A stretch of DNA of 64,000 nt from Curvularia clavata (GCA_023920165.1 CP089281.1:1860001-1924000); one strand, 5' to 3'; positions 8,705-34,997 are shown, counted from the stretch's first letter. Translations and numbers: made by a program. The notes: a model not told the origin generated them from the sequence alone.

Positions 8705-9538
8705 ATGGCGGATGTTCAGGAAGTGCCGGTGACTCGGGCAGATGATGTTGCAGTGAAGCGAGATAAAGACGATTTGCTGGAGCATTTGGATGAGTTGCTG
8801 GAGCGGTACTTGATCACCTTGCACGAGTACCAGCAACAAATGCAGCGGCTGTCCAAGCAGCTGTCTAGTGTAATTTGCCCATATATACCCTGTTCTACGA
8901 GAGACTGATGAAATACAGGGCTATATGTCGCTTGCTCAGGCAAATTTCCACAATTCATCTGCTATTCGCTATGGGCAGGACTGCTATGATGAACGGATGC
9001 AGGCTATACGCAAGGTGTAAGTCTTCCAAAGCTTGATTGATCGGTTTCATATATTGCATTGAAAATGCTTCCTGTGCATGAGCTGACTACTAGATATAGT
9101 CGCATTTCCGAGCAGGACAATCAGCCAACTGATTGTCCAAACTTTTCCATCTACAAGCCATGCTCCTCTAATGGGACTGCGAATTCTTCAGGAAAAGATG
9201 CTCTGAACCAAGATGCAACAAAGACGGGGGATTCAAATCCTGTATCCACAGCCACTAAATCCACAGGAGAAAGCGAGGAAGAATCAAAAAGTACTCCAGA
9301 AAAAGACCATGCCAATCCAGCATCAGAAGAAAGCAAAGAAAAAACCAAGACCGTGCAGAAATCCACTGATCCGCTCAAGTGGTTCGGCATCCTCGTCCCC
9401 CCTTCTCTTCGGGCAGCACAGTCTACGTTCGTAGACGCAGTCGAGGGGCCGATTCCCCAGCTAGCCACGATAGCCCGAGAAATGAGAATGCAGGAGATTG
9501 AGATTGGAAGAGTGAGGAAACAGATTAAAAAGATGTAG
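8705..9538 (+). CDS. Vma22/CCDC115-like V-ATPase assembly factor
   Basis: N-terminal LDELLERYL..EYQ helix, GYMSLAQANF..YGQDCYDERMQA, and C-terminal DPLKWFGILVPPSLRAAQSTF; two introns. Confidence 0.85.
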
Positions 9539-9753
9539 GACTTGGATGAGTTTTGAGTCAATTACAAAGCTCCTTGTCCGGTATCAATATTCAATCAACT
9601 GTCGTCTCCAATAAGACGGACGAATCATACTATCATTTTAACCCCCTGTGCTTTTCTTTACTAGACACAGCCCCATCTCCCTCCTCAACCCGTAAACATA
9701 GAATATTTAGAAAACGCCAACCCAATGCACTCTCCCCGCTGTTCTTTCCCCGC

Positions 9754-10313
9754 CTAAACCTCCTTCATCAGCTCCTCCAACTCATCATCATCATCCCAGC
9801 CGCCTCCCCTCCTATTCACCACAATCTTCTGCTCCTCCTTCTCCTGCGCCTCAGCCACAGCCCCTAGAATCTCTTTCAGCTGCTCCTCCGTCACCTTTTG
9901 GCGTAATTGGCCTGTTCGTGCCAGCATAATAAGGCGGTTTTCAACATCTGTGGCGCGCGATTCTTTGACGAGACGGATGCGGCCGAGGCGGTCGGCGGCT
10001 TCCGGGAGGAGGATCTGGGAGAGTATAGAGGAGCGTTGGTCGGCTGGGGGAAAAAAGGGTTAGTGGGTTGTTAAGTTACGGCGGGTGGTGTCGCATGTGG
10101 GATGGATGGGTGGACAAGCGTACCTTCTTGTTGTCTATGAAAAAGCAAAGTTAGTAAATAATTCAGTCTTTGGGGGAACAGTGCTCAGAGTAGATGGTAG
10201 ACTTACTTTCGCGAATCTTGCTCCGAGCCTTCGCCCTGGCCTCTGCCCCCACCTTGCTGCTGTAGCTGCTGAAGGCGCGCGCGCCGGATTTGCTCCAGGT
10301 CCTCGTCTGACAT
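9754..10313 (-). CDS. PDCD5-like double-stranded DNA-binding protein
   Basis: Spliced MSDEDLEQIRRARLQQL..SILSQILLPEAADRLGRIRLVKESRATDVENRLIMLARTGQLRQKVTEEQLKEIL; includes an 11-nt micro-exon at 10124-10134. Not in the ORF track. Confidence 0.9.
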
Positions 10314-10785
10314 TGTGAGTCGCTTGGGTGTGGATTTATCGAGTGGGCCTTGGGCGGGTAGAGAAAGGGAAAGTCGGTGGTGGGCGTAAACAAATGCAGG
10401 CTATGTTGTGGCGCGCAGAAAGTGTGGTTGATGCGGGGAAGTTCGGGGGTCCGAAGCTCGACTCGAATACGGAGGGCGGTTATACCACCGACGGTAAAAA
10501 TGGAATGTGATTGTCGAGCATAGGGCTCATAAGTATGGAATTGTATCAATACAGATTTTGGAACTCAATCGGGGGGAGATTCGCATGCTACATGTGTAGG
10601 GCATGTGATGGAAGCTGGCGCATGACGTGCTTTACTTCTTCAGTATTTTCACATCTCTTCGTCACATCTAAGTCGTATAAAATACAGAAATTCATCACAT
10701 GCCTCATAACACTGCGAGCTGATCATGATACTCCAAAATTTGATTTGACCTCATTCATCCATACCCCATCATTTAGCAATGCCAT

Positions 10786-12684
10786 CTATGAGACCTCAAA
10801 GCCCTTAATACCCCCCTCGGCATGGTACTCGCGAATAATGCGATCATACATGGCAGTCCCACCTCCATGGAGCACTCTTCGCATTGCCTGCCGCTTGTGC
10901 TCAGGACTGCTGGACGCAACGCGCAAAGTAGCACCCTCATGGTTAAAGTAACCCGGGGTGCAGGCTAGGACAACAGAATACCACGCCGCTCGACTCTCTA
11001 CCTCGTCCGTCCATGCATCCTCTGCTTGTTTACTGGGCTCTATTACAAGCTGCTTAGGATTCGAAGCACGCCTCACTGCCTCCTTCAACACATTGGCGAT
11101 ATGTTTGGACTCGAGGTCAAACACGACAGTGAGATTTGGCGAGCCAGGTCCGCCAACGAGACCAGGGAAGAACAAGTTCGGAAACCCGTTTGTAGCGATG
11201 GAATGAAATGTGCCAAAATCATCAGCACCAAACTTGTCTTTGAGACGGCGGCCATTACGACCAAAAATCGGTATATCGAAACGCTCGCCGGGCGCTCCGG
11301 TTGGCCCAGCTGCCAGTATGAAACCGGTGGCAAGAATCAACACGTCCAACTCGTACTCGACCCCATTGACAACGAGACCCCGCGATGTACACCGCTCCAC
11401 GCCCTTGCCATCTGTATCCACGAGCGTGACATTCGGTTGGTTGAAGGCGGGCAGGTATTCGTCCTGGAAGGTTGGCCGCTTGCACCACATAGGATACCAC
11501 GGCTGTAGCCGCTCTGCTGTGGCTGGGTCCTTCACCACAATTTCCCGCACTCTTGCTCGCGCTTTCTCTGCTCGGGGCACGTCCAGCTTGTATAAAGCAC
11601 GAGCATGTTCCTCTACGTCGTTGGGTGTGACGTGGCGTGGACCTCCAATGAAGCCCGCAAAGCCTTGTGCCATGTGCGTCCAGCCGTCGGCAACAAGATC
11701 GGGATGGTCCGCTGAATGCTCCTCGCCGTCGAAGAAAGTATCGAAATTTAGCTGGCGAGCAAGTTGCCAGCCGGGTCCTGTTGCCACTTCGCGCTTCCAT
11801 GTTTCATCATCCGTGGGTTTCTGGCGGCGCGGACCGCAGTATGAGGGTGTGCGTTGGAAGACATGCAAATGGCCAGCCCAGCGTGCCACTGCTGGTACTA
11901 CCTGAACTGCAGTTGCCCCTGTGCCCATGACACCTACACGCTTTCCCTTGAGCTTTGAAAGCGTAGGGTCCGTTGGTGAGCCGCCAGTGCATTCATAGTT
12001 CCAACGCGCTGTGTGGAAGACTGGAATATTCGTGTTGAGCTCATCGAAGCCGTCAAGTTTCGGCATTCTGGGTGCTGTCAAGATGGTCCCGGTTGGAATC
12101 AGAAACTGTGTGAAGACAGTCATTTCCTCGCCGCTACGCTCTTTGCACATACGAACAACCCAGCGTCGCCGCTCTTCGTCCCATGTTGCGCTGAGCACGC
12201 GAGTAGCGAACTGGCCGCGTAGTCCAAAGTGTGATGCAACGCGCTTGCAGTGCTGGCGAATCTCTTCTCCCGTTGCATATTTCTGTGTCGGTTTGTAGCC
12301 CGTTTCTTCAAGGAAGGGCATATAAATGTAACTCTCTACATCGCATTGAAGACCTGGATATCGATTCCAGTACCATGTTCCACCAAAGCCGCCTGCCACG
12401 TCGACCAAGCACATGTTTTCTGCTGAGAAGCCCGCCTCTACCAACCGCCCTCCTGTCAGTAGGCCTGCATGGCCTGCACCTATGATAAGAACTTCGATGT
12501 CATCGTTGTCCTTGAGTAGGCATGACTCATGTTGCTGCTCCTGGCTAATCCATGGATCATCTGCGAGCGCTTTGTCTTTCTCACTGAGCAGACGAGTGTA
12601 CTGCTGCATGCCATCTTGCCGCAACCGCTTGTCGCGTTCCTGGGCATATCGAGCTTCGAGTTTGGCGGGATCGGGGAAAGTCAT
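10786..12684 (-). CDS. FAD/NADPH-dependent Baeyer-Villiger-type monooxygenase
   Basis: 632-aa intronless ORF with IIGAGHAG, GGTWYWNRYPG, a BVMO fingerprint variant FHTARW, a second Rossmann motif GTGATAVQ, and ATGF. Confidence 0.93.
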   Translation of the reverse strand: MTFPDPAKLEARYAQERDKRLRQDGMQQYTRLLSEKDKALADDPWISQEQQHESCLLKDNDDIEVLIIGAGHAGLLTGGRLVEAGFSAENMCLVDVAGGFGGTWYWNRYPGLQCDVESYIYMPFLEETGYKPTQKYATGEEIRQHCKRVASHFGLRGQFATRVLSATWDEERRRWVVRMCKERSGEEMTVFTQFLIPTGTILTAPRMPKLDGFDELNTNIPVFHTARWNYECTGGSPTDPTLSKLKGKRVGVMGTGATAVQVVPAVARWAGHLHVFQRTPSYCGPRRQKPTDDETWKREVATGPGWQLARQLNFDTFFDGEEHSADHPDLVADGWTHMAQGFAGFIGGPRHVTPNDVEEHARALYKLDVPRAEKARARVREIVVKDPATAERLQPWYPMWCKRPTFQDEYLPAFNQPNVTLVDTDGKGVERCTSRGLVVNGVEYELDVLILATGFILAAGPTGAPGERFDIPIFGRNGRRLKDKFGADDFGTFHSIATNGFPNLFFPGLVGGPGSPNLTVVFDLESKHIANVLKEAVRRASNPKQLVIEPSKQAEDAWTDEVESRAAWYSVVLACTPGYFNHEGATLRVASSSPEHKRQAMRRVLHGGGTAMYDRIIREYHAEGGIKGFEVS

Positions 12685-15228
12685 CTTTTTTTCTCTCTAC
12701 AGTTGGAGACTCGAGAGGGTCGACTATGGAAGGTGAGGCGAGAAGCGTCGAAAGGGTTATCACCGAGATAAAGGGCTTTACCCCCAAATACAAAAGCCGA
12801 TGTCGATTGGCAATTAGGTTTTTGTATTGTATTGCTGCTCCTCTGATCCAATGCTCTATTTCAGCTCCCTAATCTGTATTCCCATATCTGCCCTTTTCTC
12901 GTCCGAACTGGCACATAGATTGCGAATAGAGTCATCTTGCCATGGTAATACAATCCATTGTCTCGGACTCCGACATTCCCAAATAATGGACCGTGGTTAC
13001 TGTGGGGTTGTGGGGATGAAGGATTGCTGCGGTGGATTTTGTCGAGTATCCATAGCTATTCGTATCGCGTGGTGATCCACTTCCAACGAGTTTGGTCACC
13101 TGACATCTCAGACCACTGACCAAGTGTGTAGCGCGAACGTGTTCTGCTGGAGTTCAATAAAGAAGGTACGCCGAGATAAGGACAATGCAAGGCCCACCCC
13201 GTCTATAGTAAACAGTAATATGTGCATATGCACGTAACCATCTAGTCACAGTGTAGCGTCATGCGTAACATCATACATTGTCCTTGTTCTGACGTGCATA
13301 TTCGTTGGACAACACTAAAGCTTATTTCGCAACGTTGAATGACACCCAGGAGCTAATATCTTGTCGTCAACAAAGTGCTTACACAGCGACCATTAGTGCA
13401 ATGGACGACTTTCCACAGGAAATACCAAGAAATATGGCTACGTTTTTATAAATGTATGTGGAATTGATATAATATAGGCAATGCCAGATACGGACAACAG
13501 TTTCAGGTTCCTCTTGATTAATGACAAATGAATAATTGACCCCGGACAACGCTTCACGCCCCGTCCCATCCAAATAATGTTCTGGCCAATAACAGCGCAG
13601 CTATCAAACTTGTATTTTCTAGGGCGATAGAAACCCCCTGCTATTGGAGTTTCGGGCTTGTTACAATAGTCTTAGACTTTTTTTCGTCACTCATCTCCTC
13701 ACTAGGAAGTAAATGTATCATTATCGTGTCTTTTAGCGTTTTATGAAACTTGGCTTCAAGAGTGGTTGTAGTGCAAAAAGTTGCAAGAATTGCTTGCCTA
13801 GTACCGTAGCCATCGGAGCCCCGCCACATACAAAGGGATGGCGATGCTGGATGTTACATGCAGACAGCCTGTTTTTTCTCTATAATATCGCACTGTTCAT
13901 CAGAGCAAAGTATTCATATATCTAGAAATAACTCAGGTTGCTTCTGATATTCTAATATGAACCTTGGCGGAAGTCCCATTTGCCACATCACGCATGCCAT
14001 AAGCTTCGGCATGATATTTTCATTCGCATATGAGAGACTTTCGAGAAGTTACTGTGTTAAGCTCCAGTGTAGGACCTTGTCACACTGGACCTCCTTGTTC
14101 TTCCTCAGAAAGTCCAGAGATGTACCTATCATCATTCTTCAGGCACTGATTTCTGATCAGACAGTATTGAGTCGTCCGATAAAGCGAACGACATCACTCC
14201 ACTCGCGCTTGCCGCTTTATATCTGCCCAATATGAGGGTCGTATGGATCCATATACCACGGGTACTGCTCTAATGTCACGTTCACGAATGTTCAGTCTTG
14301 ATATTGTAAGTACAAAAACTTGCCAACTATTAAGAAAATGACATTCCTACGTCCCAACTTCACTAAAATATGTCAAAGCTCCTTGAAGCCACTCCATATT
14401 AACACATATTTCTCTCAAGTAAACCTTGTTCTAACGTGAGCATAAAACAACCCTTGATTTGGAAGCATGTAAATCACCTTTGGGCCTACAATGGATGATA
14501 ATCAAAGGACCTGCCTTTTCAGACAGGCTTTAGGGTTCAATTTGGCGTTTTTAGATACTTTTCTCCAGATAACGCGGTTAAACAGCTAGATTCGTACCAA
14601 AGTGGAGCTAGCTAGACGCACTGTTCATGATAGTGTAGAACTATCGGACAAAAAGAGTATAGGATGCCAAAAGAAATCTTCAGGCTTATTTTGTGTTCAA
14701 ACTATTGCGAAAGAAGTAACGTGGAGATCCCAGGGTTGCAGTCAGTGTGGGCTTCTTTCATTCCCCAGGCAACACAATCTCGAATTTCCTAAAGCCCCTT
14801 ACACACTCACAGCTGTACTAACAAGATCGCCTAACCTAGCTGTGAAATCACAAAAACATCATCGCTGGCGTGACCCTCGGCTTCAATTTATCAAGTGGGA
14901 ATAACACGACTGAATAGGCAAAGTACGCAGGTGTCAATGTGACACGCAGCTCCACTCTCCCTTGTAGTAAATACCCCGACCCTCCCACCCAAAATGCCCG
15001 AAAAACACTGCAAACGAGGAAAATGACATGCAGAGAGCAGGGGCAATACGATTGGGAACGGGGGGCCAAGTGCAGCCCAAAAGAAGCCCAAATACCTGGG
15101 AATACCCATCATTTTAAGAGGCGGCTCAAAATTGAGTTCTGAGGCGAGAGCTAGCGGGAAGTTTAATTCGCATTCTTGTCTCGATTGTCTTATATCATCT
15201 TTCGCAAGCGTGCTGAGCCACACCAACC

Positions 15229-16245
15229 ATGTCTACTCAATACACTGTCGTCGAGACGGTGCCCGTCCACCTCTCCGCCATCTCATCAAAGCCTAAAAAT
15301 GCATCCAAGCCTTTCTCTTTGAAACCGTACCTGGAGCTCACGCGCTTCAGCAAGCCCGCGGGGCTTCTGGGCGTCTACTTCCCTTACTTCATCGCCTTCC
15401 TGTACTCGGTCAACCTGAGCAATCCAAACGCCCTCTCTGCAGCTGACTGGGCCAAACTCAGCGCTGTGTTCCTACTCGACGGTCTGATTCTCAGGAGCTT
15501 TGGTTGCGCTTGGAACGATACCGTCGACCAAGATCTCGATCGCGAAGTCGGAAGATGCAAAAAGCGGCCGGTTGCACGTGGTGCTGTAACGACTCCAGAT
15601 GCACTCGCTACGACTTTGGTCCTCGCTGTCGCTCGCCACGTTTTGTATCACGCTACGCTTCCCGCTCGTGCTGGTCAGCACGCCCTGTTCACGACGGTAC
15701 TCGCTCTCGTATACCCGTTTATGAAACGGTTCTGCAACTTCCCGCAGCTTTGTCTGGGTATCGGCGTGGGCTGGGCTGTCTTTTTGGTCGACGCTGCGGT
15801 CGTTGATGGGCCTTGTGAATCCCAACTGGCCAACGAGATCAACTCTACGGACCGCAGAAAAGCCATGATTGCCATGTGGGCTTGTCAAAGCCTCTTCAAC
15901 ATCACTTACGATACCGTCTATGCCTTTCAGGACATTCAGGATGACTTGAAGATCGGTGTCGGTTCATTAGCAGTAGGAGTGCGCCGCTATCCTAAGACGT
16001 TTCTGCTGTCGATTGCAAGCGCCATGGCTGCCTTCTTGTGGGGTACCGTGTCCTGGGGTGGCTTGACGCGTGGTCCGTTCTTAGTTGGTGCGGCTGTATC
16101 GTCTGTTGCCGCACTAACAATGTTAGTACGGCTCAATGTTTGGGATCCGACCAAGTGCAAGGACTTCTTCGTGTATGGCCAGTGGTGGGTGAGTGGAGTT
16201 TTGCTGACAAGCTTGGTGGCTGAGTTGTTGATGACGAAGTCGTAA
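15229..16245 (+). CDS. UbiA-family membrane aromatic prenyltransferase (secondary-metabolism type)
   Basis: 338 aa, intronless, multiple hydrophobic helices; motifs WNDTVDQDLDREVGRCKKRPVARG and YDTVYAFQDIQDDLKIG; no evident mitochondrial presequence. Confidence 0.93.
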   Translation: MSTQYTVVETVPVHLSAISSKPKNASKPFSLKPYLELTRFSKPAGLLGVYFPYFIAFLYSVNLSNPNALSAADWAKLSAVFLLDGLILRSFGCAWNDTVDQDLDREVGRCKKRPVARGAVTTPDALATTLVLAVARHVLYHATLPARAGQHALFTTVLALVYPFMKRFCNFPQLCLGIGVGWAVFLVDAAVVDGPCESQLANEINSTDRRKAMIAMWACQSLFNITYDTVYAFQDIQDDLKIGVGSLAVGVRRYPKTFLLSIASAMAAFLWGTVSWGGLTRGPFLVGAAVSSVAALTMLVRLNVWDPTKCKDFFVYGQWWVSGVLLTSLVAELLMTKS

Positions 16246-16783
16246 ACTCGGGATTTAATGACGTGAATGAACTATGGTCTGAACGCGTAAAGGACGAATC
16301 TGGTCAATATACATGCAGAAGCATGGGCATTTGGATGGTTGCTAGTTTAACGAAATGAACGGACATTAAAAGACAAACACACAATGATACTTCCTTCGGT
16401 GAGACTGTGATCATTCTTGGATTTGCAAATCCAGCACTGTGAAGAGGCGTTGAGAGATGCAAACTGCAAAGCAAACCCGAGTGGACACTTCACGATGAAG
16501 GCAGTGGGAACCAGCTCCTAGAAAACTTGATTATGGCAAGCCGCCCCTCCCACTTATCCATACAGACTCAGCACGGAAACCCAACTGTGGGTACACGTAA
16601 AAATCGGATGATTTCCAAGCCGACGATCACAACGCAACATGGAAGTCTTGACTGACTCAATCCGTGCATGCTCAAAACAATTTATGAAAGCGACACATCT
16701 GGATACCGCTTCCACTAGATAGCACACTAGCACCAAAAGAACAATTCATCATAGACACATGAAATCCTATTCCGCAACTCTCT

Positions 16784-18154
16784 CTAATTTTCAGGAATCG
16801 GCACCACGCCCTCCGGCCCCTTCCCCCCCGGCAACCACCCCTGCTGTACCGTCCTGACTCCCCAACTCGCCGGATAATCAATCTTGGTATGGAACAAACC
16901 ATAATTCTGAAACAACAACAAATCCTGCTCTTCATCCGGTCCGACCCAGATATACTCTGGTTTAAGGATCCTCGACTGAATGTTATCCAGAAACCTGCGT
17001 ACTTCGCCTATATCGTCGATGACTTTGGGTGTATTGGTGGGGCTAGTGCGCAGAAAGAGGCGGCGCGCGCAGTTATGCTGGGCTTGGAAGGAGCGGCGGC
17101 CCGTGACGGGGTTGATCCAGACCATTGGGTGCTGTGTGAGGGAGGGTGACAGTTAGTGGGTCGAAAGATGAAGGTTTGGTGCGTAGAGGCAAGAACTCAC
17201 TCTCTTCTGCCACTCTGGCTTCATTTCTTCAATCTTTGCCATTTCTTCTTCTGGTACTTCTTTCCCTTCGGTAGCGACGCCTAGCCCGTTGGGAGCCCCG
17301 CGGCATCCCTTGATCCACTCGTAGGGCCAGTACATGTACTCGACCCAGCTGTGGTCTACCGTCTTCTTCTCCTCGTCGCTCAGCATGTCGTACAACTGCT
17401 CGACGTCTACGTACGCTGTGCGTCCGGGCTTGACTTCCATTGTGAGACCTGAGTCGTCGGCCCACTCTACAGTCTGCGTTTCTTTGCCCTGTGTCGGGAA
17501 CTTGACCGGTCGGAGCATAGTGAAGGTTGGGGGGTCGTACTTGAAGTAGGTTCCGTCGGTGTGCCACCAGTGGAAGCGAGTGCGTCCGGCCTCGAAGTCT
17601 GCGTCGGCGAGCGGCTTGCTGTAGTATTGGTTGAAATTGCTGTCGCCCATGTTCAGGCCGGGCTTGCCGTAGCGAGGGTCATCTTGAGGGCCTTTGCCGA
17701 TGAAGACGAAGGCGCCTGCTTCGGGAACTTCTACGTAGCGAATGCTGGGCTGATGGACTGTCAGAATTCACCATAACCTGCAATTCTGAAGTTTTTCTTC
17801 TCCATACTTACCACTAACGCGCCGTTGGGGTAGAACGCGCGGGCAAACGTCTCATTATCTATCTTTTTAGAATCTGGATCGAGCTGCTGCAGCAACTCCC
17901 AACTACGCTTCGGCACGAGGTCATGTTGGCCTTTGATGACAAGAAGCTTGTGCTCCCAGGTAGCTTTGCGCAACTGTGCCACTGTTTCTTCCGTGAAATT
18001 GTTCAAATCGAGGCCCGTGACGACAGCCCCAAACTAAGCAGAGTAATGTAAGTGGGGAACCACAAGAAGGGGTTTGATAAGTGGTCCCGATTCTTACCTT
18101 GCACTTCTTTCCTTCGGGATGAACCAGAGGCTCAATCTTGAAATTGTTCGCCAT
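16784..18154 (-). CDS. Fe(II)/2-oxoglutarate dioxygenase, TauD family (xanthine dioxygenase-like)
   Basis: Four exons: FGAVVTGLDLN..LRKATWEHKLLVIKGQ, HxD motif WWHTDG, VWINPVTGRRS, distal His in GLFHTK. Confidence 0.85.
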
Positions 18155-18908
18155 TATGTCGGGAGCAAGAAATCAACGTATGGCCTGAATTCTCTTGGTT
18201 TGTTTGCACAAGATCTGGACCGCGATTGCAGAGCGAACGAGAGCCCAGGCACTTATCAGCCTACATGTTGGCCTCAATTCGCCCCACAGAGCCTCACAAC
18301 TAGGGTAGTCGAGGGTTGCGGACCAATTTGGCAAGTCGGGGTCCAGGGTATTGCAAAATGCACCGACGCACGTCATTTTGTCCGGCGTAAACTTCGCGTG
18401 GCATGATCGTGGTCCGCTGCACGTAATCGATTAAGTTTCCAGTTGCAGGGAATACGCCGATGTTTTGGATGGTAAATCAGTGTTTTCCAATATGTTTGTT
18501 GTCCCAAAGAGGACTTGCTTTCCTGATCACGTGACATGTGAGTGTAGTAATGTCACCCATGTAAAGTGAACACTTCCTGCCAATCAAATTGGGTGAAATT
18601 CATGCAATGTAGCATTTATTTGCTGGAAGATTCATCGAAGCTCGTCTTTCCAGCGAGAAACAGCTGTCATGACCTGCAGTATTTACTGAAAGATCACGTG
18701 ATAATAAATCCACGTGCGCAGAACTTCAACCGGGTGACCATACAGATAAACGAAAGAGCTTTTCAAGAGGACTCTAAAGGCTGGGGCATACATGAGTATT
18801 CTTTGTTCATTAGTTTGCATACATAAAGCCTGACCGGCTTTACATTCTAAAAACAAAACATTGTGCACAATCGGCGCTCATCATCAAGTGTCTCGTCAAG
18901 AGCGACAA

Positions 18909-20226
18909 TCACAACTTCTCGCAAGTCGGTCCCCTCGGCGCAATAACCTGCACCCCATCTCCATGTGTACCATACGTGACGAAATCCTTCCTCTCCAACC
19001 CAACCTTATCCAGAATGCAATCCCATTCGACCAGCGACCTCTCTCTTGCCCCATAGTTTGCCATCATGAGCATATCCTGACTGGCTCCGTACCAATGCGT
19101 ACAGTCATCCCTGAGAACCAATTCGTCGACCACAATAATCGAGTCCGGCTCAAGAACATCCTTAAGAAGCGAGAGAATGTTGTGACAAGCGTGGTCAGGC
19201 CAATCGTGCAAAATGTTGCGCAGATAGTAGATGTGGGCGCCCTTGACGGGCTGGGGTTTAGTAAAGTCGTGGTGGACAACTTTTAAGCCATGGATGCCCT
19301 TCGCAGAGTCGATAGCGGCACCGTGGGTGTCTTGTAGCACGATGCGCCCTTGGAGCCAGGAAAATCTCTTCAGAGCCTCACGACACTGGTGTCCGTAGCC
19401 GCCGCCAACGTCTACAAAGACTATTCGCTGTTTGTCGCTCGCACCGAAATCAGGCACGTATTTCTCAAAGGGGAACACGTCTAGCCAGCTTTGCTGACCC
19501 ACACGCTGGAAGGACATGTATTCGTTAAAGGCATGTTGGTGTCGCGGCCGCTGGGATAGCCATTCAAAAAAATGGAGATCCGTATTCTTACACATATTGA
19601 AGGCGAGGTTCTTATTATCCTGCGGCTGTTTGTAGGAGTTTTTGGCTAGCCACTTTGGTAGCGTGTTGTACAGTGCAATGTTCCGCTCAGTCCTGTAAAA
19701 TTAGATGGGATGAACAGGGAAATACTTCCAGAAACACTCACGCATGGAAGGTCACGGACTCAATTCCGGACATGGAAAGGTGGTGTGTGAGACCCGTTGC
19801 CCGGTACATCTCGACGTCGACTTGCTCAACCATCCACTGTGTAGCTGCATATCGCAACAGCCGCACCAGCAGGGCCTTTTCAGCGCCCAGCTCGGTAGCC
19901 AGCTCGCTGGCGCTCATTGCCGCACCATTGCGGCTATCAAGCAGCCTCCATAGGCCCAAGTCGATACCGACCTGTACTATATTGGGCGGCAGTGTACAGA
20001 AAACCATACGCTGCATGGTGTCCCAAGGCGTTTCGAGCCTGAGGGAGGCCATCCTCATCGCCTCGAGGCATCTGCGGCGTTTCTCGTCATCATTGCGCAG
20101 GCAGTTGGGAATGTTCCCCACGGCGAGGGATTCAAGTGATTCGAGGAGATTGTCGGTTGCGACATCCTCGTCGAAGTTGACATTTGAGTGTTCAGAAGGG
20201 AACGATATAGCGGCCATGGTGATCAT
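18909..20226 (-). CDS. SAM-dependent O-methyltransferase (fungal secondary-metabolite class)
   Basis: Two exons (intron 19741-19693, in frame): N-terminal dimerisation region, VDVGGGYG, YYLRNILHDWPD, ERS. The start could be 20217. Confidence 0.93.
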
Positions 20227-23200
20227 GAGTTTAGTACCCAGACATGGCTATACAGCGAAGATTGGAAATATATATTGCTCGCTGCCAGAAGCGGCATGGT
20301 GACGCAAAAGGACGCAGTGGAACTCATGCGGTGTCCGTCATACTTGCTTTGGTCGGTACATTGCAACAATCGGGAGTTAATTGGAAAGCCGGTAGCCGAC
20401 ATGAGAAGATCTCTGGTAATTTATGGCGTAGGCGTCAAGTTAGGTGGTTGCAATCTTGTTTACGATCGGTTTTTGCTTTTCTCAAATTTCTAATGCAGGT
20501 AGTTGTCATCATCATTGGTGGTGATGACACGGCCTTGCTTTTTGGTCTTGTTTAGTTTTCTAGTTTATTTCGGGCATGCTGTTTTGGGCAAAGGAAATAC
20601 AAGGCGATCTGTTGTGGCGCATGCATGTCGAATACTACATAGATGATCGAGTAACGGGACTGACAGCTATTTTTTGTTTCCATGCTCATCAATAGTGCAG
20701 TGCTTTTGAGAGGAATAAGAAGAAGCAATGGTTCTATACGACCGACATACGTCGGTGGAGTTTGCGTGAACAATTTTGGAGAGAACCCATGTTTAAGCGT
20801 GAGGGTAATTAAAGCGTCATGCTGAAGTGCTGCAGTAGAGTGAATAATAGACTTGAACGAAAACAAGTTTTGTCCTGATTTGTGTACTTGCGAAAGATGT
20901 TGAGTAGTTGCTTTTCTTTTCGGGTGTAAGAAGGACCGTGAGCTGCAGCAGAAGAAGGTCGGGTGCATGTTGTTCCGATAAGCATGCTTCCTTTTGGTCA
21001 ACCACGCTTCATGAAATTTACCTGTTCACGCGTGTCACAGGAGGCTGTTGCTCCGATTGCGGTAGATCCCTGTAGCAAAGCTGCAGGATCCGAATTTTAC
21101 TTTGTCGCGACACGTGCTGCTGAATCTCGTGAGTGGGGTTGGGGGCAACTCCTTCACTGAGGGATTTTCTGAAGTGTTTGGTGGACACAGCCCAGCACGG
21201 CCAATCCGCTGCATACCGCTGATCAGTAAAAAATCTGAGTGGGAGCGACGTGGTGTGACTCGGCCAACCAGTTGGTAGCTAGCTGCAGGAACAGTGGAAC
21301 ATATATCTGGGTCGTTGCCGCTCGCCATGTGGGTCTATAGATATGCAGGTTCTTTGAGCGGTTTCCACTTTGCGATATCTACGGGCCAGGCGGAGACGCG
21401 ATTTTCTGTTGAGGTGGAACCGGATCGGAGCGTCGAGACTTTGACAAGATACCAACAGTTGGGGAGCGGCAGGTGCACGGCCGTTGGAGAATGCAGTATT
21501 AGTAGGCTTAAAATAGTCGGATAAAACGGGCCCCAGTCAAATTACTACAACAGTATCATCATCATGTGACAGATGATTCAAGCGCATCTAGATGTATTCG
21601 TACTTGGTATGCGTCTTCGAGAGCTGGGGCTTGCGGTTTATCAGAGTTGCTGCGGTGCAATTTTGTTTCGACTATTTTGGTACACCAAGAGGCAGGCGAG
21701 GCGAACAATGGCATTGGTACGAAGTTCAGCTGCACTCTTATTCAGGTGTATGTAGCAGGTCAAAAAAACATGATGCGGTTGGTGTACCGTACCGAAGATC
21801 TACCTTGAGGAATAGGGCCTTTTTGCCATAGTTTATTGGGCGTTTTTGGCGCACGACTAGCCGGCCAATACTTGGTACCATGACGGTGGTGAACAAGGCC
21901 GGACTGAGGCTGACGAGGGGGGTTTGAGTGTGCTCAGCAGCGGTCCTTGAGTTGTGCTGAGCTTATGTGTAGGTGTTTACGTGTACATGGCAGCTGGCGT
22001 ATACTGTTTCAAGCGTGAGATGGCGACCGAGGCGTTTGTAGCAACAGCGAAGATTAGAGGTGGTGCGCCGAGACAAGGGCGGCAACGGCAGCAAAAGTGG
22101 GGAGGTAGCGCTAATGCGTGGAAAACGGTTGATTGACCCAAGGGCTATGCAATTGGCCATGTGTGCAACTCGCGTGATGGGTCTCGACGAGCATGTGTAG
22201 CACAGACAGGTCAAAGAATTTGGAGTGTGTGCTCAAACGAGCATCCAAGGCCTCGTGCAGGTGTGGTGGGAGGGAGACGGGCTTCCTTTTCGAGGCCAAA
22301 ATCAAGCGTGCACCGTTTCTCTGGCTGAAGGCAGCGTGGCTTGGCAGCGTCACCACATGGCTGGCGTGTTGATATCGGGGCCCATTGGTGAGGGGGAGCC
22401 GGCTTACACTGCTTTCAGCAGTTTACCCAAGGCAGTGCCGAAAGGACTGCAGCGCACGAGGAAGCATGCAGACGAGCATGGCGGCGGTCATGCTGAACAA
22501 GGAGCGATGGCACCGGGCTGATCTAGTTGGCTGCAGACATGCACGTCTGCGGGCGCGTCCCAGGCGTGTCATCTGACGCGGGGTAGGTGAGCAAGTTCAG
22601 CGATAGCAACAGAGAGCAAATGCCGGTGTGCAGAGAGCAAATGAGGGTGTTGTGTGTCTGTGTGCAGATGAAGTCATGGTCGGACAGACGCTTTGGTACG
22701 CGTGGAGCCCCGACTTGGACGAGCTTGTACAAGTCGAGAGAGTGTCGATAGGCCGTGGGACGGCGCGGCCAGACAAAAGGCCGGGCGGTGTTTCGAGCCT
22801 AGGAGTAAGGTCGTATTGCAGCGCCACGGGGGCCTGAGTCAGCCGTCTGTCTTATTGCGGGCAGACAGCGCAGACGGGCTGACAAGAAGCGGGCGATGGT
22901 TCGAGACATGCAGGCGTCCAGCAGGCCGACGGGGACAAAGTCGATCAACAGCATAGTATGTATGCGCGAGACGAGGGATTGGGACGGGCGGCATGGCGGG
23001 TGCGGTGGGCCTGGCAAGCGAGATCTGGAACGCACTCTTGGTCTCGCCTTGGTCTCGCCGACAAGACATCCCTGCCGCGCCAGCCAACTCCTGCAGGGCA
23101 GCTGACGGTATCCAGTGATGGACACGCCGCCGGGATGCGTGTGGATGCCACGGCCGCCCCGCCCACGGCCGCTGTGTCGTGTCGTGTCTGGCGTAGGGCT

Positions 23201-23649
23201 GGACTGAAGGACGAGTGCGTGAATAATGTAGTAGTATGCTTTACTCGTCTGGCCATGATAAGAAGGCGCGTCGCACGCCTCGCTCGCGCTTTCCTCGGTG
23301 CTCCCAGACGCCAGACGCCCCATCCGCGTCGCTCATTTCACGCCCACACTACCCCCTGTCGCGCCTGCCCGATATACATGCCCGCACCTTCCTCGCCGCT
23401 GCCCGCCCGCCAGTCCTGCCCTCGCCCTCGCCCTCGCCTGCCTCTGGTCGCTGCGCTGCCTGTTTGCTTTCTTCTTCCACGCCTGCTGAGACGCCCAGAA
23501 CAAAACACCAGCGCCACTCCCAGCGCCCGACAGTGGCGCCTAAACCACGCCCTCAAGCCACGCCTGGCCGGGCAACGGCCGGCCAAGTCTCTTAATCCCG
23601 TCCCCAGCATCCCCAATCTCGACCTCGAGCTGCTTCGTCCTGTCTTCGT

Positions 23650-25260
23650 ATGGACCAGTCTCAATCCGACACCATGTCGCGCAGTCGCACCAACCGCACG
23701 CGCTCGGCCAACTCGTCGGGCTCGGCAGCAACCTATGGCTACCACAACACCTACCACACACACGCCCAGCTGCCTCTCGGCTCGCCGCCCTCCTACGCCT
23801 GCGCCATGGACCCCAAGACTCGCAAGAGGCTAGACGAGAGGGCAAGAGCAGAGAAAGAGGCCGTCCGCAACATGCAGCTGCCCCCGCCCTACACGTGCAC
23901 AGTCGAGATGCAAGGCATCGTAGGCCTCAAGCACGAGCTTTCATCGCCTTTCCAGGTCTCCAGCCACCGCGAATGGTCCGACGTCTATGCCATTCTCCGG
24001 GGCACCCAATTGAACCTCTACCGCATCAAGAACCCCCATCTCCTCAGCAAGTCCAAGACGGCTTCTCCAGGACGCTTATTGAAGTCCTTTTCTCTACAGC
24101 ACGCCGAAGTGGGCGTCGCCTCGGACGTCAAGAGGTCGCCGCTGGTCCCAAAATCCCCCTTTGTCCACCTCGTACCCGTCACAGCCAGGGCCAAGCTATA
24201 CGAATCGGACCCCCAGTTGTTCGAGCCCGTCCGGGAGCACCCCATCCGACTCCGCCTCGAGTTTGAGCAATTCCTGCTGTGTCCCGCTTCCGAGGAGAGC
24301 ATGCTTGATTGGATAGAGTCTTTTTGCGCCGCAATTGATATTAGCTCGCCGCTCGAGGACCGAAGCGAGCCTCGCTACCGGAGTTTACCCCGGAGAAGCC
24401 GCAGACAGCGAGTTCTAGACGCTGCCCAAATTGGAGACAATCTCGAGAGCCTCTCCAACATGGAAGCCGGCCGACGCCTCATTGCAGAGCAAGAGCAGAT
24501 TATGCGCCAACTCTACCCCAACCTGGCAGGAACCCGTGAACAAAGTGCTAGCCGCCACTCTCCCTCAGCCGACGCAGAGCTTGACGACTTTGACCCAGAA
24601 GATGTTCGCTTCCCTACCAGAGAGGCTGCAGACCCTTTGACCCGTATTTCTTCCCAAGGTCACGACCAAGCCGACGAGGACCAACCCGACAGCCAATCTT
24701 CGTCGGATCACAAGTCAATGGCCCCAGTTGCGCCTACGCCAGCCCAAACCATGCGATACCGCCGCCGTTGTGCGCCTGTTCTGCTTGCCTCATCCCCACG
24801 GGTAAGTGACGTAGTATTTGCCAAGGGACAGCGGTTCCGAATCAGCGTAAAAGCCCACATGCTTGTCGACTATGCTACGCACCCACCTCGCTACGACGCA
24901 CATGGCTTCCCCAAGAACAGGCGTCCGTCCCATGCCGCCATCACCCAGGAGCCGCCTGCTGTGGCCACAGAAGAAATAGCCCCAGTCACCGTCGTTCCAG
25001 AAAGGCCTAGCTCGCCCGTCCGCGGCATCAGTGACGATTCCATCACGTCCATTACCTTTGGCGAAGACCTCGCCCCTATCAACTCAAAGTCAAACATAGA
25101 CGAGACTGGACAGTCGGGCCCTCCATCCCCGACTGGAAAGTCCCACGTCACGGCAGACGCTGCACGCCAACTCGAGGCAATGGGCAAGAGACGACCTAGC
25201 GTCGAGAGCCGCGAGGCCAGTCTCAACCCGCTCAACCTTGGCGTCGGGCTGCTTATTTGA
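23650..25260 (+). CDS. PH-domain protein with PPxY motifs
   Basis: 536-aa ORF; REWSDVYAILRGTQL..SLQHAEVGVASD..IRLRLEFEQFLL..WIESFCAAIDIS..LEDR matches a fungal PH family; PPSY, PPPY and PPRY motifs. The start could be the second Met (23674). Confidence 0.82.
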   Translation: MDQSQSDTMSRSRTNRTRSANSSGSAATYGYHNTYHTHAQLPLGSPPSYACAMDPKTRKRLDERARAEKEAVRNMQLPPPYTCTVEMQGIVGLKHELSSPFQVSSHREWSDVYAILRGTQLNLYRIKNPHLLSKSKTASPGRLLKSFSLQHAEVGVASDVKRSPLVPKSPFVHLVPVTARAKLYESDPQLFEPVREHPIRLRLEFEQFLLCPASEESMLDWIESFCAAIDISSPLEDRSEPRYRSLPRRSRRQRVLDAAQIGDNLESLSNMEAGRRLIAEQEQIMRQLYPNLAGTREQSASRHSPSADAELDDFDPEDVRFPTREAADPLTRISSQGHDQADEDQPDSQSSSDHKSMAPVAPTPAQTMRYRRRCAPVLLASSPRVSDVVFAKGQRFRISVKAHMLVDYATHPPRYDAHGFPKNRRPSHAAITQEPPAVATEEIAPVTVVPERPSSPVRGISDDSITSITFGEDLAPINSKSNIDETGQSGPPSPTGKSHVTADAARQLEAMGKRRPSVESREASLNPLNLGVGLLI

Positions 25261-30414: not shown

Positions 30415-32201
30415 ATGATTGCAGGCTCGTCTAACTTTGACTACTCTTCGCTCAAAGAGCTACTCAAAGATACAAATGCCGAAATTCTCACCCCTACAGA
30501 TGGCGCGGCCTACGAGAAAAGTATAGGACGATGGAGCGAGCATTGTATTAAGAGAGCTGTAAGTATGGTAGTCTTTTTCTCCATGCAAATTATGGGATTG
30601 GGCAAATAATTCAGCCCGTAGAGATTGCACATCATCCAAGCTACGTTTCCTAAAACCATGACATCTTAATCACGTCCCGCCATTTAATACCTTTGTATAA
30701 TCACTATCTATCCCACGTCTACTAACAAGAGAGAAGGCTGCTGTTGTCATGGTCACTTCGGCCGACGATATATCTGCCACCCTTGCGCAGATCCGCGAGC
30801 ACAACATCCCATTCACGGTTCGAGGAGGCGGTCACAACACTTCTGGGGCAGCTTCGATTGAAGATGGTATCGTTATCGACCTCTCCAAGATGCGAAAAGT
30901 GATTGTAGATCCTCAGGCCAAGACCGTCACAGCGCAGGGCGGAGCTCTCTGGGAAGACGTCGATGTTGAAGCCGCAAAGCACGGACTTGCCGTTGTTGGA
31001 GGTACTGTCAACCATACCGGTATAGCAGGCCTAACCCTCGGTGGTGGGTATGGTTACCTCACTGGCAAGCATGGTCTGGTAATTGGTATACACTATCTAG
31101 TGACCCGAGCAAACAACATCTACTGACAAATTTAGACAATCTGCTCTCCGTGGACATTGTTCTTGCTTCTGGAGAGCAATTCACCGCATCAAAAACATCA
31201 AATGAGGACCTCTTTTGGGCAGTCCGCGGAGCTGGTGCAAACTTTGGCGTGGTAACATCATTCACCTACCAAGCCTACGACCAACGTCCACACGTATTCG
31301 CGGGGACAATGGTGTTTCTCCCAGACAAAATCCCTGAGATTGTTGAGTTCTCAAATAAATTTCACACTTCCAACGATGGCAATCAAGCGTTTCTCTTTGG
31401 TTTTGCAGCACCTCCGCCTGCCAATGCCCCAGTTATCATGTGTATGCTCTTTCACAATGGTACCGAAGAGGAGGCAAAAGATTTTTTCTCTGAAGTCTTC
31501 AAGATTGGTCCTGTAGCAGACATGACGGCCATGGTCCCTTACGAGAAGCTGAACAGCCTACTCAACCCTGCGGCTGGATTCGACGGACGTAAGCAATTTG
31601 GTGGTGGAGCATTCAAGACTCCTTTGGACCCCAACTTCATTATTCAGCTCCACGCCGAATTCAACGCTTTCGTTGCTTCTCACGAGCGTATGAACGAGAG
31701 CCTGATGATATTCGAACTTATCCCTTACAAAAAGGTGATGGAGGTGCCAAACCACGCGACATCCTTTGCGAACCGTGGCGACTACTACAATGTTGCTACA
31801 GCGTTCAAGTGGTCAGTACAAATAACGAATAGGGAAAATTAGTACTAATTTGGCAAAGGTTCGACCCATCGATTGACAATGAGATTCGTACTTTTGCTCG
31901 GAGCATCCTTAAAAAAGCTTCTGAGACTGCAGCTGGTCGTTCAAAGGATGGAGGAGTTGGTCAATACGCGAACTACGCACGTAAGTCACATACAAAACAC
32001 TTTGGGGCTTTGAAGCCCCATCGGTGAAATGAATCAACACGTACTTTGGTACTGACTGAAACAGCTCTTGATGTGGAAGCCAATGATCTGTTTGGTGCCA
32101 ACGTGAAACGACTCGAAGAGTTGAAGCAAAAATACGACCCAGAGAATTTGTTCAGTCATGGAACAAAATTGACACCGCGACCTCTAGTAGTCGTGAACTG
32201 A
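30415..32201 (+). CDS. FAD-linked oxidoreductase (berberine-bridge/VAO family)
   Basis: Five exons; VRGGGH flavinylation motif, [36 protein letters not shown]-terminal [19 protein letters not shown]. Confidence 0.92.
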
Positions 32202-32834
32202 AACCTGTGTTTGGACGGATCGCCGAAGAATCTTCGTTATTCATTGAAAGTATCTCGAACGATCGACCTCATACATGTTTAAGTGGGCTTTAACATGAGT
32301 ATATTTAATGAGTTCATTTCATCATTCAAATGGTCTTACTTAGCAATGAATTGAGTACCGCATTGATTGTGTCATTGCTGCTCTCAGTTTGAATCACAGG
32401 CCGTGATACCGTCGAAGCCTGAAACAGAAATCTGTCCAAATGTGCCGATAATTCCGTTGCATTACAGGGCTGTGGAATCACCAATCTCACAAACAGTCAC
32501 GATGAATGCTTGAATTTAAGCACGCGGCCATTATCACAACCAAAAGCCATGTCACTAGGAAACCCATTTAAGGCTGCGTTCTCAAAGTCTTGGTCTACAT
32601 ATGGATCCCAAATCTTTCAAACAACGATCTCCACTCGAATTCATAACACTGAGCACTCCTTAAATATAACGGAAGCTCAGGCAAAGGAACAACTTGCGAT
32701 GAAACAAAAGTAGATCAACCATCCAAAGATGTTACCAAAAGGCATCAATCATTCGAGAAAAACATCAAAGAACATTCCAAATACTCAAAATAGGATGTAC
32801 CGACTCAAAAACTCTGCATATGCGAAGTGCCAAA

Positions 32835-33089
32835 ACCCAAGGGTGACCTTGGAGTCTACTCATGACCGTCAAAAGTCCTAGGACTGTGGGTAGATTATAT
32901 TTGCCTCGTTCATCCAGTCTCAGTCGTTCCTACATTCTCTCATGGTCCATGAAGCGAAAATGGGCTGCATTGATGATCGTCGCCTTTTTCACCTTCTTAT
33001 CGCCTGTATCTTCAGCCATGATCGCTCCTGCTCTGAGCGATACCGGCGTTGATTTTAGCATCATAAACCCAGCAGAAGCTCAAATGTAG
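32835..33089 (+). pseudogene. Remnant of a DHA1-type MFS drug/metabolite transporter
   Basis: WSMKRKWAALMIVAFFTFLSPVSSAMIAPAL..PAEAQM is a typical first transmembrane segment of fungal MFS-MDR transporters, followed by a stop with no recognisable continuation. Confidence 0.7.
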
Positions 33090-34997
33090 AAGATTGAACC
33101 TCGGTTTTATGATATGCTCTAAGGAAAAGTGCCAGGCCAGTGCCATGCGAACATATCAAGGACAAGGCTTTTTTATTAGGAAGGTTATGCTGTTCAAGAG
33201 CCCATCATCGTCGACTTCACTTCATATAGTCAATAGATGTTTTCACGGACATTTGAGAAGCAATTATTCTGACTTCGGCGAGCGAATACAGCTGTGAAAA
33301 CTGACGGTCTCATAAGAACGCTGTTGCTTACTCAAAGACAATAACTGAAAGAAGAGCTGTATCCGTTCGTTTCTCACATGGTGGCTCAAGTGAGTACCAA
33401 TCTTTTTCCAGAGTTAATTTGTCTTTGGTATGTTTGACATGGATACTGGAATATTTTATCAAGTGTCGCAGCAGCGCACATTTCAACATTTTGGACAGAC
33501 CCCATCCCGACAATCACGGTGCATGAGTAAAAAGGATATTCCCAACTCTAATGCTATACGGAGAACCATAGTACGGATTTTTTGTATTATACTGTAAATG
33601 TGTATCCCACAGACTTATTGCGACGAAAATGCGTCTCTTGCAGAAAAGAGTGATTTTTATTGACATAGTAAAGCTATGGTGATGGTATTCACAGAATTAT
33701 CAGCTGCATGCGCATGGGAGGTAAGGGATAATGCTCACCGCGGATTACACGACGAATTCGAACGAAAAATACGAGGTCCAAGCCTTACTCTGATCACACC
33801 ACCTCAAAAAAAAAAGGCGTAAAGGATTTTTCATGCTGATTACTCAACACTTGCAGAATGCTTCATTCAGTACCGCGGAATGACAATAACGAGGCCAGAC
33901 CATATATATTGATAACAGCGACAACCCCACCTCCGCCCACAAAAGTCGAATGATACTCGTGTCATCGCCTTGAATGCCCAGCATCGTAGTAGGATCATGT
34001 CGTTGCTATCGTATGATTAAAATTGTCAGAGACATTTTGTACTAGTACCTTTTAGGGAGTTGCGCTTGGACTTAGAGAATTTCGAGACAGTCCTGTGTGT
34101 TGTGCTTCCAATTGGGCGCGTGGATAGTGTATTATATTGTTACACAAAATAGATCTTATATACAATACGGTTGTAAGCTGTGTAAGACTGCATGGGCTGA
34201 GCGTAAGCATACCATGTACTTTGTAGATGCAAAGGCAGATTCTTCTCCGCGGGTGGGTACTAGGGGATCACTGTGCAAATAGTCGCTCCGATTCGGATAT
34301 GTGGAAAATATATGCGCATGAAATAGATGATCATGAGCAAAATTTGCATCACAAGGTTCCAACTGATACTCAGCCCAGCCCTGAACCTTGCCTGTGACAT
34401 TTACTATATGCAAGTCTTTTGACATCCCTTTGTGGTAGTCTTCTGAGCTATCGGCGACCTTCACTCATCTTTCAGGCGTAGAATCTTCAATGACAACATA
34501 GTGCAAGGTCCACTGGTTGACATACTTGAAACCAGTTATAAGTTCAGATACTCAGTGTGGAAGTTAAAGCTCTGACCAATCATGATCCATGTCTAGGGGT
34601 TCTTATGATTGTCGCCCAGATCGCAGACATCGGTAGGAAATAGCTTTACTAGTTGAACTCACTGCATGTGGTCACTTACAGATATCATCACTGCCGATCC
34701 CTGCTTACTGGCAGTGTAGCATACGGATTACTATACTCCGTACAATCACCAACATCGACAACCAATAGTACAGAGTGTTTCAAGCAGGGGGGTTCGTGAT
34801 ATTCGCCCCACCTACCCACGCCTACTGCGCCAAGCCTCGAACTAGAGAGCAACAACAAAACAAGCAACTTAGTCGGCGAATTTCCCAGGGCTTCGAGTCA
34901 GAAATCACCGACGGCAGTCTTCGATCCACGTTAAAAACAAGATTTGGGTCCAATAAGGGAGGCCATAATGTAACCACGGAGCACTGCCAGGTCGACA

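Follow-up and report, generated by a model that had tools for sequence, protein, structure and literature searches.

Fungi make the prenylated compounds biscognienyne, asperpentyn, panepoxydone and vibralactone independently of a polyketide synthase (PKS); a UbiA-family prenyltransferase starts these pathways from 4-hydroxybenzoate or hydroquinone (PMC12720273, PMC10257657). In the bis (biscognienyne B), aty (asperpentyn) and pan (panepoxydone) clusters and in the unclustered vibralactone pathway, the transferase builds the scaffold on a small ring supplied by primary metabolism; oxygenases follow, and the partner enzymes are phenylalanine ammonia-lyase, a group A flavin 4-hydroxybenzoate 1-hydroxylase, cytochromes P450, cupins and a carboxylate reductase. 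Here we describe a locus in a 64,000-nucleotide stretch of the Curvularia clavata genome (GCA_023920165.1 CP089281.1:1860001-1924000; "the window" below), where a UbiA-family prenyltransferase gene lies together with genes for a Baeyer-Villiger monooxygenase (BVMO), a TauD-family dioxygenase and an O-methyltransferase (OMT). Canonical meroterpenoid clusters (austinol, terretonin, andrastin, ascochlorin and mycophenolic acid) likewise combine a UbiA transferase with an AusC-like BVMO, an Fe(II)/2-oxoglutarate dioxygenase and a methyltransferase.

The BVMO, UbiA and TauD genes form a conserved core, to which the OMT gene is accessory. The four genes very probably constitute one functional cluster and, provided that they do, the balance tilts towards an acceptor drawn from primary metabolism. 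Taken as a whole, the statement that the locus is a conserved Dothideomycete cluster of small size, probably co-regulated, which makes a prenylated metabolite of meroterpenoid type without a PKS of its own and on an acceptor from primary metabolism, has in our estimate a probability of about 0.5.

Results

Gene models and their expression

The window DNA is fungal, with intron-bearing genes and ~50% GC. The BVMO gene (PockeMO type) runs on the minus strand from an ATG at 12684 to a stop at 10786-10788 within the open reading frame (ORF) 10786-12696, and encodes 632 aa in a single exon. The gene for the UbiA-family aromatic prenyltransferase (15229..16245, plus strand) is also a single exon, of 338 aa. 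Downstream on the minus strand follow the gene for the TauD/TfdA-family Fe(II)/2-oxoglutarate dioxygenase (16784..18154; 4 exons, 3 introns) and that for the OMT, a class I S-adenosylmethionine (SAM)-dependent enzyme of 422 aa with one intron (18909..20226).

Contigs from three studies of two organisms (public runs X1-X3) were placed on window positions 9000-23000. They skip 17132-17200, 17750-17811, 18034-18097 and ~19692-19740, all with GT..AG ends on the minus strand, and because of these intron-precise joints we take them to be RNA; the run type itself is a guess. From the joints, the TauD gene was modelled as join(18154..18098, 18033..17812, 17749..17201, 17131..16784)(-), giving 391 aa, and the last of the four gaps is the single intron of the OMT gene, whose ATG is at 20226. 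The contigs over BVMO (10731-13021 and 10831-13146) and over UbiA (15136-16061 and 15394-16370) have no joints, and the two genes were therefore taken as single exons. X1 and X2 contigs are present on all four genes, and the cluster is expressed in at least two related fungi. No X1-X3 contig lies on 13203-15070, yet X15 covers 13190-14804, so that the gap is a blank and not proof of a silent spacer.

The preliminary description of this DNA, made from the sequence alone, had proposed four intact genes at 10786-20226, which the ORFs, the domains and the RNA-supported models confirm. It was also right that the genes lie together; its layout had to be corrected, with UbiA at 15.2-16.2 kb and a 2.5-kb spacer towards BVMO. 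Its statement that no PKS, non-ribosomal peptide synthetase (NRPS), terpene cyclase, transporter or regulator domain occurs among the four genes stands: a Zn2Cys6 gene (43721-45283) and a major facilitator superfamily (MFS) transporter (56.3-57.9 kb) are present within the window, at least 23 kb from the cluster. PKS, NRPS and terpene-synthase families had no Pfam match among the scanned window ORFs, nor had KS, AT or PT domains, and the longest ORF in the 64-kb window does not exceed 834 aa.

Conserved gene order and distribution

The UbiA alignment, used to scan metagenome contigs, identified 13 loci (L001-L013). In L002 (9.9 kb), BVMO(-), UbiA(+) and TauD(-) follow one another in the window order with 77-84% identity, and in L003 and L004 the UbiA(+)-TauD(-) pair is kept in the order and orientation of the window. 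Across these loci, order and orientation are retained at 72-84% protein identity. The trio stands in different surroundings, because the PDCD5, Vma22 and PH-domain ORFs, the sole window neighbours queried, had no match in L001-L004. No ORF matching a PKS was found in the available L002 and L003 DNA.

Named genomes show the same adjacency. Consecutive accessions in Curvularia kusanoi are KAF2994620 (BVMO), KAF2994621 (UbiA) and KAF2994622 (a fused OMT+TauD model), in Pyrenophora seminiperda RMZ67965 (TauD), RMZ67966 (UbiA) and RMZ67967 (BVMO), and in Boeremia exigua KAH6613141 (BVMO) and KAH6613142 (UbiA). UbiA and BVMO orthologues share one set of genera (Alternaria, Pyrenophora, Curvularia, Bipolaris, Boeremia, Corynespora, Macrophomina and Phyllosticta), outside which identity drops sharply for both. 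The preliminary description had made its proposal depend on the genes being co-conserved, and linkage is indeed retained in L002, L003 and L004 and, by consecutive accessions, in the three named species. What is conserved without a PKS is the BVMO-UbiA-TauD unit; the OMT gene, which had been counted as an equal member of a four-gene unit, lies outside this core. We regard it as accessory because it is missing beside TauD in L002 and L003. In the C. kusanoi gene model (P0049), an OMT orthologue (73% identical) is fused ahead of TauD, in the same order as in the window.

The remaining metagenome loci look different. At L001:1847-4333, a truncated highly reducing PKS remnant (a KR end and an sdgA-type ACP) occupies the place expected for TauD and is followed by an Aa_trans amino-acid transporter; the fragment has no counterpart in the window, and either the locus is rearranged or the contig is chimeric. 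In each of the nine loci L005-L013, a LepI/MpaG'-like OMT (32%) is followed ~2 kb downstream by a distant UbiA (31%), and given their equal identity values these loci probably come from one organism. At L007:6802-10891, the UbiA-OMT pair lies among ORFs that, judged by eye, resemble translation-factor and PH-domain genes, and no ORF longer than 363 aa was found within 10 kb on each side of the pair. This type may be another UbiA mini-cluster without a PKS.

The spacer between BVMO and UbiA (window 12697-15228) measures 2.5 kb, compared with 0.9 kb in L002; the additional sequence is lower in GC (0.47-0.48), and its ORFs have no Pfam family (E <= 0.01).

A cis-element shared by the BVMO and TauD upstream regions

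In the window, L002 and L003, a conserved block of 15-17 nt lies 5' of BVMO and one of 27-33 nt lies 5' of TauD. The first, TCGGACTCCGACATT at 12963..12977 (plus strand), is located in the divergent BVMO/UbiA spacer ~280 nt 5' of the BVMO ATG; nothing else in these otherwise unalignable spacers matches better between the window and L003, and L002 matches the same place in L003. The second, a 33-nt block at 18318..18350 (minus strand), lies 165-195 nt before the TauD ATG; its identity is 94% to L002 across 33 nt and 93% to L003 across 27 nt. Both blocks contain the 10-mer GGACYCCGAC, as GGACTCCGAC at 12965-12974 and as GGACCCCGAC at 18335-18344 on the minus strand, the two copies being in opposite orientation. 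The 10-mer has exactly two occurrences in the window (12965+ and 18335-; 0.17 expected), two in L002 (0.02 expected) and two in L003 (0.01 expected), always at the same two places, 5' of BVMO and of TauD.

Five of the six copies in the window, L002 and L003 can be read as CGG-N3-CCG; in the TauD copy of the window, T replaces the first C. CGG-N3-CCG is a type of site bound by Zn2Cys6 factors. A variant of this site, CGGACACCG, lies at 20329..20337 (minus strand), ~100 nt before the OMT ATG; it is one of four CGGACNCCG matches in the 64 kb and is weak taken alone. The shared element and the OMT variant suggest putative control by a Zn2Cys6 regulator encoded elsewhere, for which the gene at 43721-45283 is one candidate. 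The strict palindrome TCGGRNYCCGR (2 against 0.69 expected) and the looser TCGGNNNCCG (6 against 6.5 expected) were rejected as signals, neither being enriched in the window, and among the patterns counted only the 10-mer common to both footprints is telling.

A further 18-nt block, CAAATACRCCGATAACCC, is common to L002:4386-4403 and L003:960-977, ~230 nt 5' of the UbiA start; it was not found in the window spacer.

The prenyltransferase is set apart from Coq2

The UbiA protein matches PF01040 with 110.8 bits (curated cut-off 34.2; E 8.5e-32), and among solved proteins it is closest to 4od4, an archaeal 4-hydroxybenzoate octaprenyltransferase (E 4.5e-14). In the UbiA superfamily, the Asp-rich motifs NDxxDxxxD and DxxxD bind Mg-diphosphate. 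Here they read NDTVDQDLD and QDIxDD, and N96, D97, D100 and D104 as well as D235, D238 and D239 are invariant in 28/28 aligned orthologues. Identity to the orthologues is 66-80% for Pleosporales, 60-68% for Macrophomina and Neofusicoccum, and 44-49% for a further set in which all members with a name belong to Phyllosticta; past these groups it falls to 37% or less. When 1.84 billion cluster representatives were searched, 3196 relatives were obtained at E <= 0.001, of which 4 belong to the orthologue group and the others are 28-40% identical.

The preliminary description had proposed a UbiA phylogeny against Coq2 and meroterpenoid transferases, and a quick UbiA tree was built (FastTree, 149 rows; the midpoint root serves for drawing only, and protein names are those of the sources, transferred by similarity). 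The orthologues fall into one clade, with local support of 99 (10 rows) and 93 (11 rows), and its sister contains P0083, whose source name is 'Prenytransferase ascA'. Most forms of at least 400 aa lie in other clades, including one with a named para-hydroxybenzoate polyprenyltransferase (the P0129 group); four lie beside the orthologue clade. The window protein has no N-terminal extension, and its matches to the forms of 400-490 aa start at their residues 64-172.

Coq2/UbiA 4-hydroxybenzoate polyprenyltransferase belongs to the same family and has the same two Asp-rich motifs, and several of the UbiA orthologues are so named by their sources. The window protein differs from Coq2 in the missing targeting extension, in a clade separate from most long forms, in its patchy distribution and in its oxygenase neighbours. 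We rejected the housekeeping identity, as the protein lacks the N-terminal leader and its clade is apart from that of the para-hydroxybenzoate polyprenyltransferase. Because it forms a clade of its own, apart from most long forms, and has no N-terminal extension, we consider it a transferase of specialised metabolism.

The BVMO belongs to an orthologue group of its own

Residues 8-632 of the BVMO align with the solved structure 5mq6 (E 5e-179), N-terminal extension included. This is PockeMO, the polycyclic ketone monooxygenase of Thermothelomyces thermophilus, for which we know of no natural substrate. The protein also matches the phenylacetone (PAMO), steroid and cyclohexanone (CHMO) monooxygenases (E 1e-62 to 1e-45), and by its full-length homology to solved type I enzymes it is a type I BVMO. 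The BVMO fingerprint is FxGxxxHxxxW(P/D). The window protein has ...PVFHTARWNY..., the same as 5mq6 at this place, and in both the F and G are off the expected spacing.

Despite the likeness to PockeMO along its full length, a PockeMO-like T. thermophilus protein (P0334) is only 45% identical, and the window BVMO and its orthologues make up a distinct group that is linked to UbiA. Within the best 120 hits, identity to these orthologues is 67-80% for Pleosporales and Macrophomina and 55-56% for Phyllosticta, and all other proteins reach at most 54%; one with 49% identity carries the source name ausC.

The TauD-family dioxygenase retains its expected metal ligands

Two TauD exons match PF02668 with 30.0 and 28.0 bits (cut-off 27), and full-length orthologues reach this family at E 6e-19 and 9e-18. 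Exon 3 is identical in 183/183 residues to the 391-aa P0344, 'Clavaminate synthase-like protein [Curvularia clavata]' at NCBI. The protein contains FHWWHTDG (in which HxD is HTD), LFHTKIDYP and GVRTV, the positions of the iron triad and the Arg being assigned by family knowledge. In the alignment, the distal His and the Arg are invariant (6/6) and HxD is kept in 4/6, the exceptions being the paralogues P0053 and P0054. Because His-x-Asp, distal His and Arg are retained, the enzyme is presumed from its sequence to be catalytically active. A TauD orthologue had no match in the PDB by sequence, and a profile search gave just weak matches of the TauD family (E 1e-3). The structure predicted for the orthologue P0050 from a 6-sequence alignment had a mean predicted local distance difference test (pLDDT) score of 32.9 and was unusable.

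P0053 (Bipolaris maydis) and P0054 (Alternaria gaisen) are 64-67% identical to exon 3 of the window gene, and the P0054 cluster comprises 89 member sequences. This paralogue group has probably lost its catalytic activity or acquired another role.

The accessory O-methyltransferase

The OMT matches PF00891 (52.8 bits, E 4.4e-14) and PF08100 (31.5 bits, E 1.6e-7) and contains the glycine-rich SAM motif VDVGGGYG. LepI (E 1e-36) and MpaG' (E 3e-29) are its closest solved relatives. It is predicted to be a methyltransferase of the plant/fungal COMT type, though it might instead act like LepI, which is a pericyclase.

Surroundings of the cluster

The cluster lies between housekeeping genes, as the preliminary description had stated and the domain matches verify. 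On one side it is flanked by a PDCD5-type dsDNA_bind domain at 9757-10059(-), with Vma22, SURF1, CENP-T, Ras and UBX further up; on the downstream side are a PH-domain gene at 23596-25260(+), a short-chain dehydrogenase/reductase (SDR) and Rsm22. Another 25 ORFs, 62-316 aa long, were tested from the spacers (12.7-15.3, 18.2-18.8 and 20.2-23.8 kb) and their vicinity, and none matched a Pfam family at E <= 0.01. A hydropathy count found no spacer ORF with more than one hydrophobic segment; this test is crude, and detected only 2 segments even in UbiA.

RNA contigs of X1 and X3 also cover 20.2-22.9 kb, where the ORFs have no Pfam match, and a minus-strand intron is seen at 21545-21603 (window 18766-22943). 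One X3 contig continues from 21544 across the entire OMT gene with the OMT intron kept, and the signal over 20.2-22.9 kb and the OMT gene may stem from an extended transcript that begins upstream or from a non-coding RNA. At window 10045-10207, directly 5' of the PDCD5 ORF, 161 nt are swapped for 9 other letters in X1 and X3 contigs without GT..AG ends; this replacement is a strain or species difference rather than an intron.

A second group of redox genes, with a regulator, is found at window 30701-45283. It comprises an FAD_binding_4 oxidase (30701-31839), an SDR (35102-35890), an NAD-dependent epimerase/reductase (37165-38081), a second TauD-family gene (39575-40739, minus strand), an NmrA-like gene (41375-42519) and the Zn2Cys6 gene (43721-45283). 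In L003, an orthologue of the NmrA-like gene (78-83% identical) lies only ~1.5 kb away from that of TauD and is divergent from it, and the cluster and this second group may once have been a single locus. We rejected the second TauD gene (39.6-40.7 kb) as a close paralogue of the first: TauD orthologues gave no tblastn match there at E 1e-3.

Discussion

A proposed pathway

The preliminary description had presented the locus as tailoring enzymes that lack a backbone enzyme. This framing did not hold up, for in published PKS-independent fungal pathways it is the UbiA transferase that forms the first committed scaffold. In the pathway that we propose, UbiA would likewise be the scaffold former, and would place a prenyl, geranyl or farnesyl chain onto a six-membered-ring carboxylic acid made outside the cluster. 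This acceptor would most likely be of shikimate/quinate origin, such as 4-hydroxybenzoate, protocatechuate or a dione acid derived from dehydroquinate or dehydroshikimate. The TauD-family dioxygenase might act next and hydroxylate or desaturate the prenylated product; the BVMO could insert oxygen next to a ketone to give a lactone or ester, or remove carbon; and the OMT, where present, may cap a hydroxyl or carboxyl group. The data show the four enzyme families, intact and spliced genes, their conserved order and co-occurrence, and the shared element; the acceptor, the chain length, the order of the reactions and the regulator are inferred.

Several observations weigh against this proposal. 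No product is known for the cluster, and no enzyme within it would supply the acceptor. The ascA name in the sister clade of UbiA suggests that the acceptor is a polyketide acid (orsellinic acid), and this would favour a PKS acting in trans. In L001, the UbiA orthologue (78% identical) stands without TauD and is followed by the highly reducing PKS KR-ACP fragment; the Macrophomina BVMO and UbiA accession numbers are 11-12 apart; and Neofusicoccum parvum has no BVMO orthologue among the best 120 hits, its listed BVMO being just 47% identical. The same holds for the missing OMT match beside TauD in L002 and L003, and for the TauD paralogue group of Alternaria and Bipolaris, in which Tyr-Met-Asn replaces His-x-Asp. 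The GGACYCCGAC pattern was derived from the very sequences used for its counts, and both of its window copies fall within stretches covered by RNA contigs, possibly in long leaders and not in promoters. Finally, these contigs cannot reveal levels of co-expression, and read depths were not used to rank the genes.

Alternative explanations

The names borne by relatives would suit a split meroterpenoid pathway, in which the acceptor would be a polyketide acid (e.g., orsellinic acid) from a PKS elsewhere in the genome. The closest named relative of the UbiA clade is the 'ascA'-named transferase, and AscA reportedly transfers farnesyl to orsellinic acid; the closest solved OMT relatives, LepI and MpaG', belong to polyketide pathways; the 49%-identical BVMO is named ausC by its source; and a PKS fragment adjoins the UbiA orthologue in L001. 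However, the names ascA and ausC are only transferred by similarity, and the L001 fragment is highly reducing (KR and sdgA-like ACP), not of the kind that makes aromatic acids. No PKS was found in the 64-kb window, L002 or L003, and the trio moves through differing neighbourhoods without one. We consider a split pathway less likely than the main proposal, though not remote. It is quite improbable that the enzymes transform or detoxify an external compound, such as a plant phenolic acid, instead of making a metabolite of the fungus itself. Every named genus bearing orthologues is plant-associated, the cluster has no gene to supply an acceptor, and the BVMO and TauD/TfdA families are also found in catabolism. 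On the other hand, membrane UbiA transferases are biosynthetic and spend prenyl diphosphate, we know of no UbiA transferase from a catabolic route, and a specialised-metabolite cluster would account just as well for the patchy distribution and the promoter element.

The genes might also be habitual neighbours with unrelated functions and no common pathway, an explanation with which the lack of a known product, the variable OMT, the absence of TauD in L001 and the distance between the Macrophomina accessions would agree. Against it stand the order and orientation kept at 72-84% identity in differing surroundings, the consecutive accessions in three named species, the matching phyletic patterns and the restriction of one 10-mer to two promoters in three species. 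Because of this synteny, the adjacency in named genomes, the shared phyletic pattern and the common cis-element, we do not regard the neighbourhood as a matter of chance, and unrelated functions appear highly improbable.

Possible products

One class of compounds for which no PKS would be needed is that of the dehydroquinate-derived meroterpenoids (tricycloalternarenes and guignardones), which section 2.4 of a 2026 review attributes to Alternaria, Botryosphaeria, Bipolaris, Phyllosticta/Guignardia and one Penicillium (PMC13720968). The authors of one isolation paper proposed that a dihydroxy-dioxocyclohexyl carboxylic acid is alkylated by mono- or sesquiterpenoid units (PMC4306934), and methoxy congeners of such compounds have been reported (PMC3475268). 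For this class, UbiA would C-alkylate the dioxo-cyclohexane carboxylic acid with farnesyl or geranyl diphosphate, and TauD and BVMO would then oxidise the product and remove its carboxyl carbon.

In favour of this assignment, the Dothideomycete producer genera given in that section of the review overlap those that bear UbiA/BVMO orthologues. In Botryosphaeria we saw just a 42%-identical UbiA, besides the orthologues in Macrophomina and Neofusicoccum, which we take to belong to the same family as Botryosphaeria. The genus overlap could merely mirror which Dothideomycetes are sequenced, the Penicillium and Aspergillus producers are unaccounted for, and a role of the BVMO in this chemistry is not obvious. 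No gene cluster for tricycloalternarenes or guignardones was found in the open-access literature, that on C. clavata included; one may exist in subscription journals. It is rather unlikely that the cluster makes these dehydroquinate/shikimate-derived meroterpenoids of Dothideomycetes (tricycloalternarenes, bicycloalternarenes, ACTG-toxins and guignardones); if it did, it would provide the first genetic basis for a widespread class of plant-fungus metabolites.

Whatever its product, the locus would probably be overlooked by mining tools keyed to a PKS, NRPS or terpene synthase. With three or four genes it is a compact target for heterologous expression, and the conserved CGG-N3-CCG element offers a handle in the search for its regulator.

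Comparison with known systems

The preliminary description had named a match to an already characterised cluster as a finding that would speak against it; we found no characterised cluster of this composition in the open-access literature, and one may be in subscription journals. The canonical meroterpenoid clusters come close, inasmuch as the clade of the window UbiA has an 'ascA'-named clade as its sister group and the OMT counts MpaG' among its closest solved relatives. The window cluster differs from them in having no non-reducing PKS, no epoxidase and no recognisable Pyr4-type cyclase (the Pfam coverage of the Pyr4 family was left unchecked, and the title of a 2024 paper speaks of 'domainless' enzymes). 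The dioxygenases of canonical meroterpenoid pathways belong to the PhyH family, in contrast to the TauD/TfdA-family enzyme of the window.

From the bis, aty, pan and vibralactone pathways the window cluster differs in its partner enzymes, a type I BVMO and a TauD-family dioxygenase. None of their partners (phenylalanine ammonia-lyase, group A flavin hydroxylase, P450, cupin or carboxylate reductase) was detected by Pfam in the scanned window ORFs. Vibralactone was rejected as an analogue of the type "UbiA plus BVMO", as VibO is a group A flavoenzyme and not a type I BVMO. The combination of type I BVMO, TauD-type dioxygenase and prenyltransferase does not appear in the PKS-less fungal pathways compared here. 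Clusters that lack a PKS and are initiated by a UbiA transferase are thus already known, and what is new here is the enzyme set of BVMO, TauD and UbiA.

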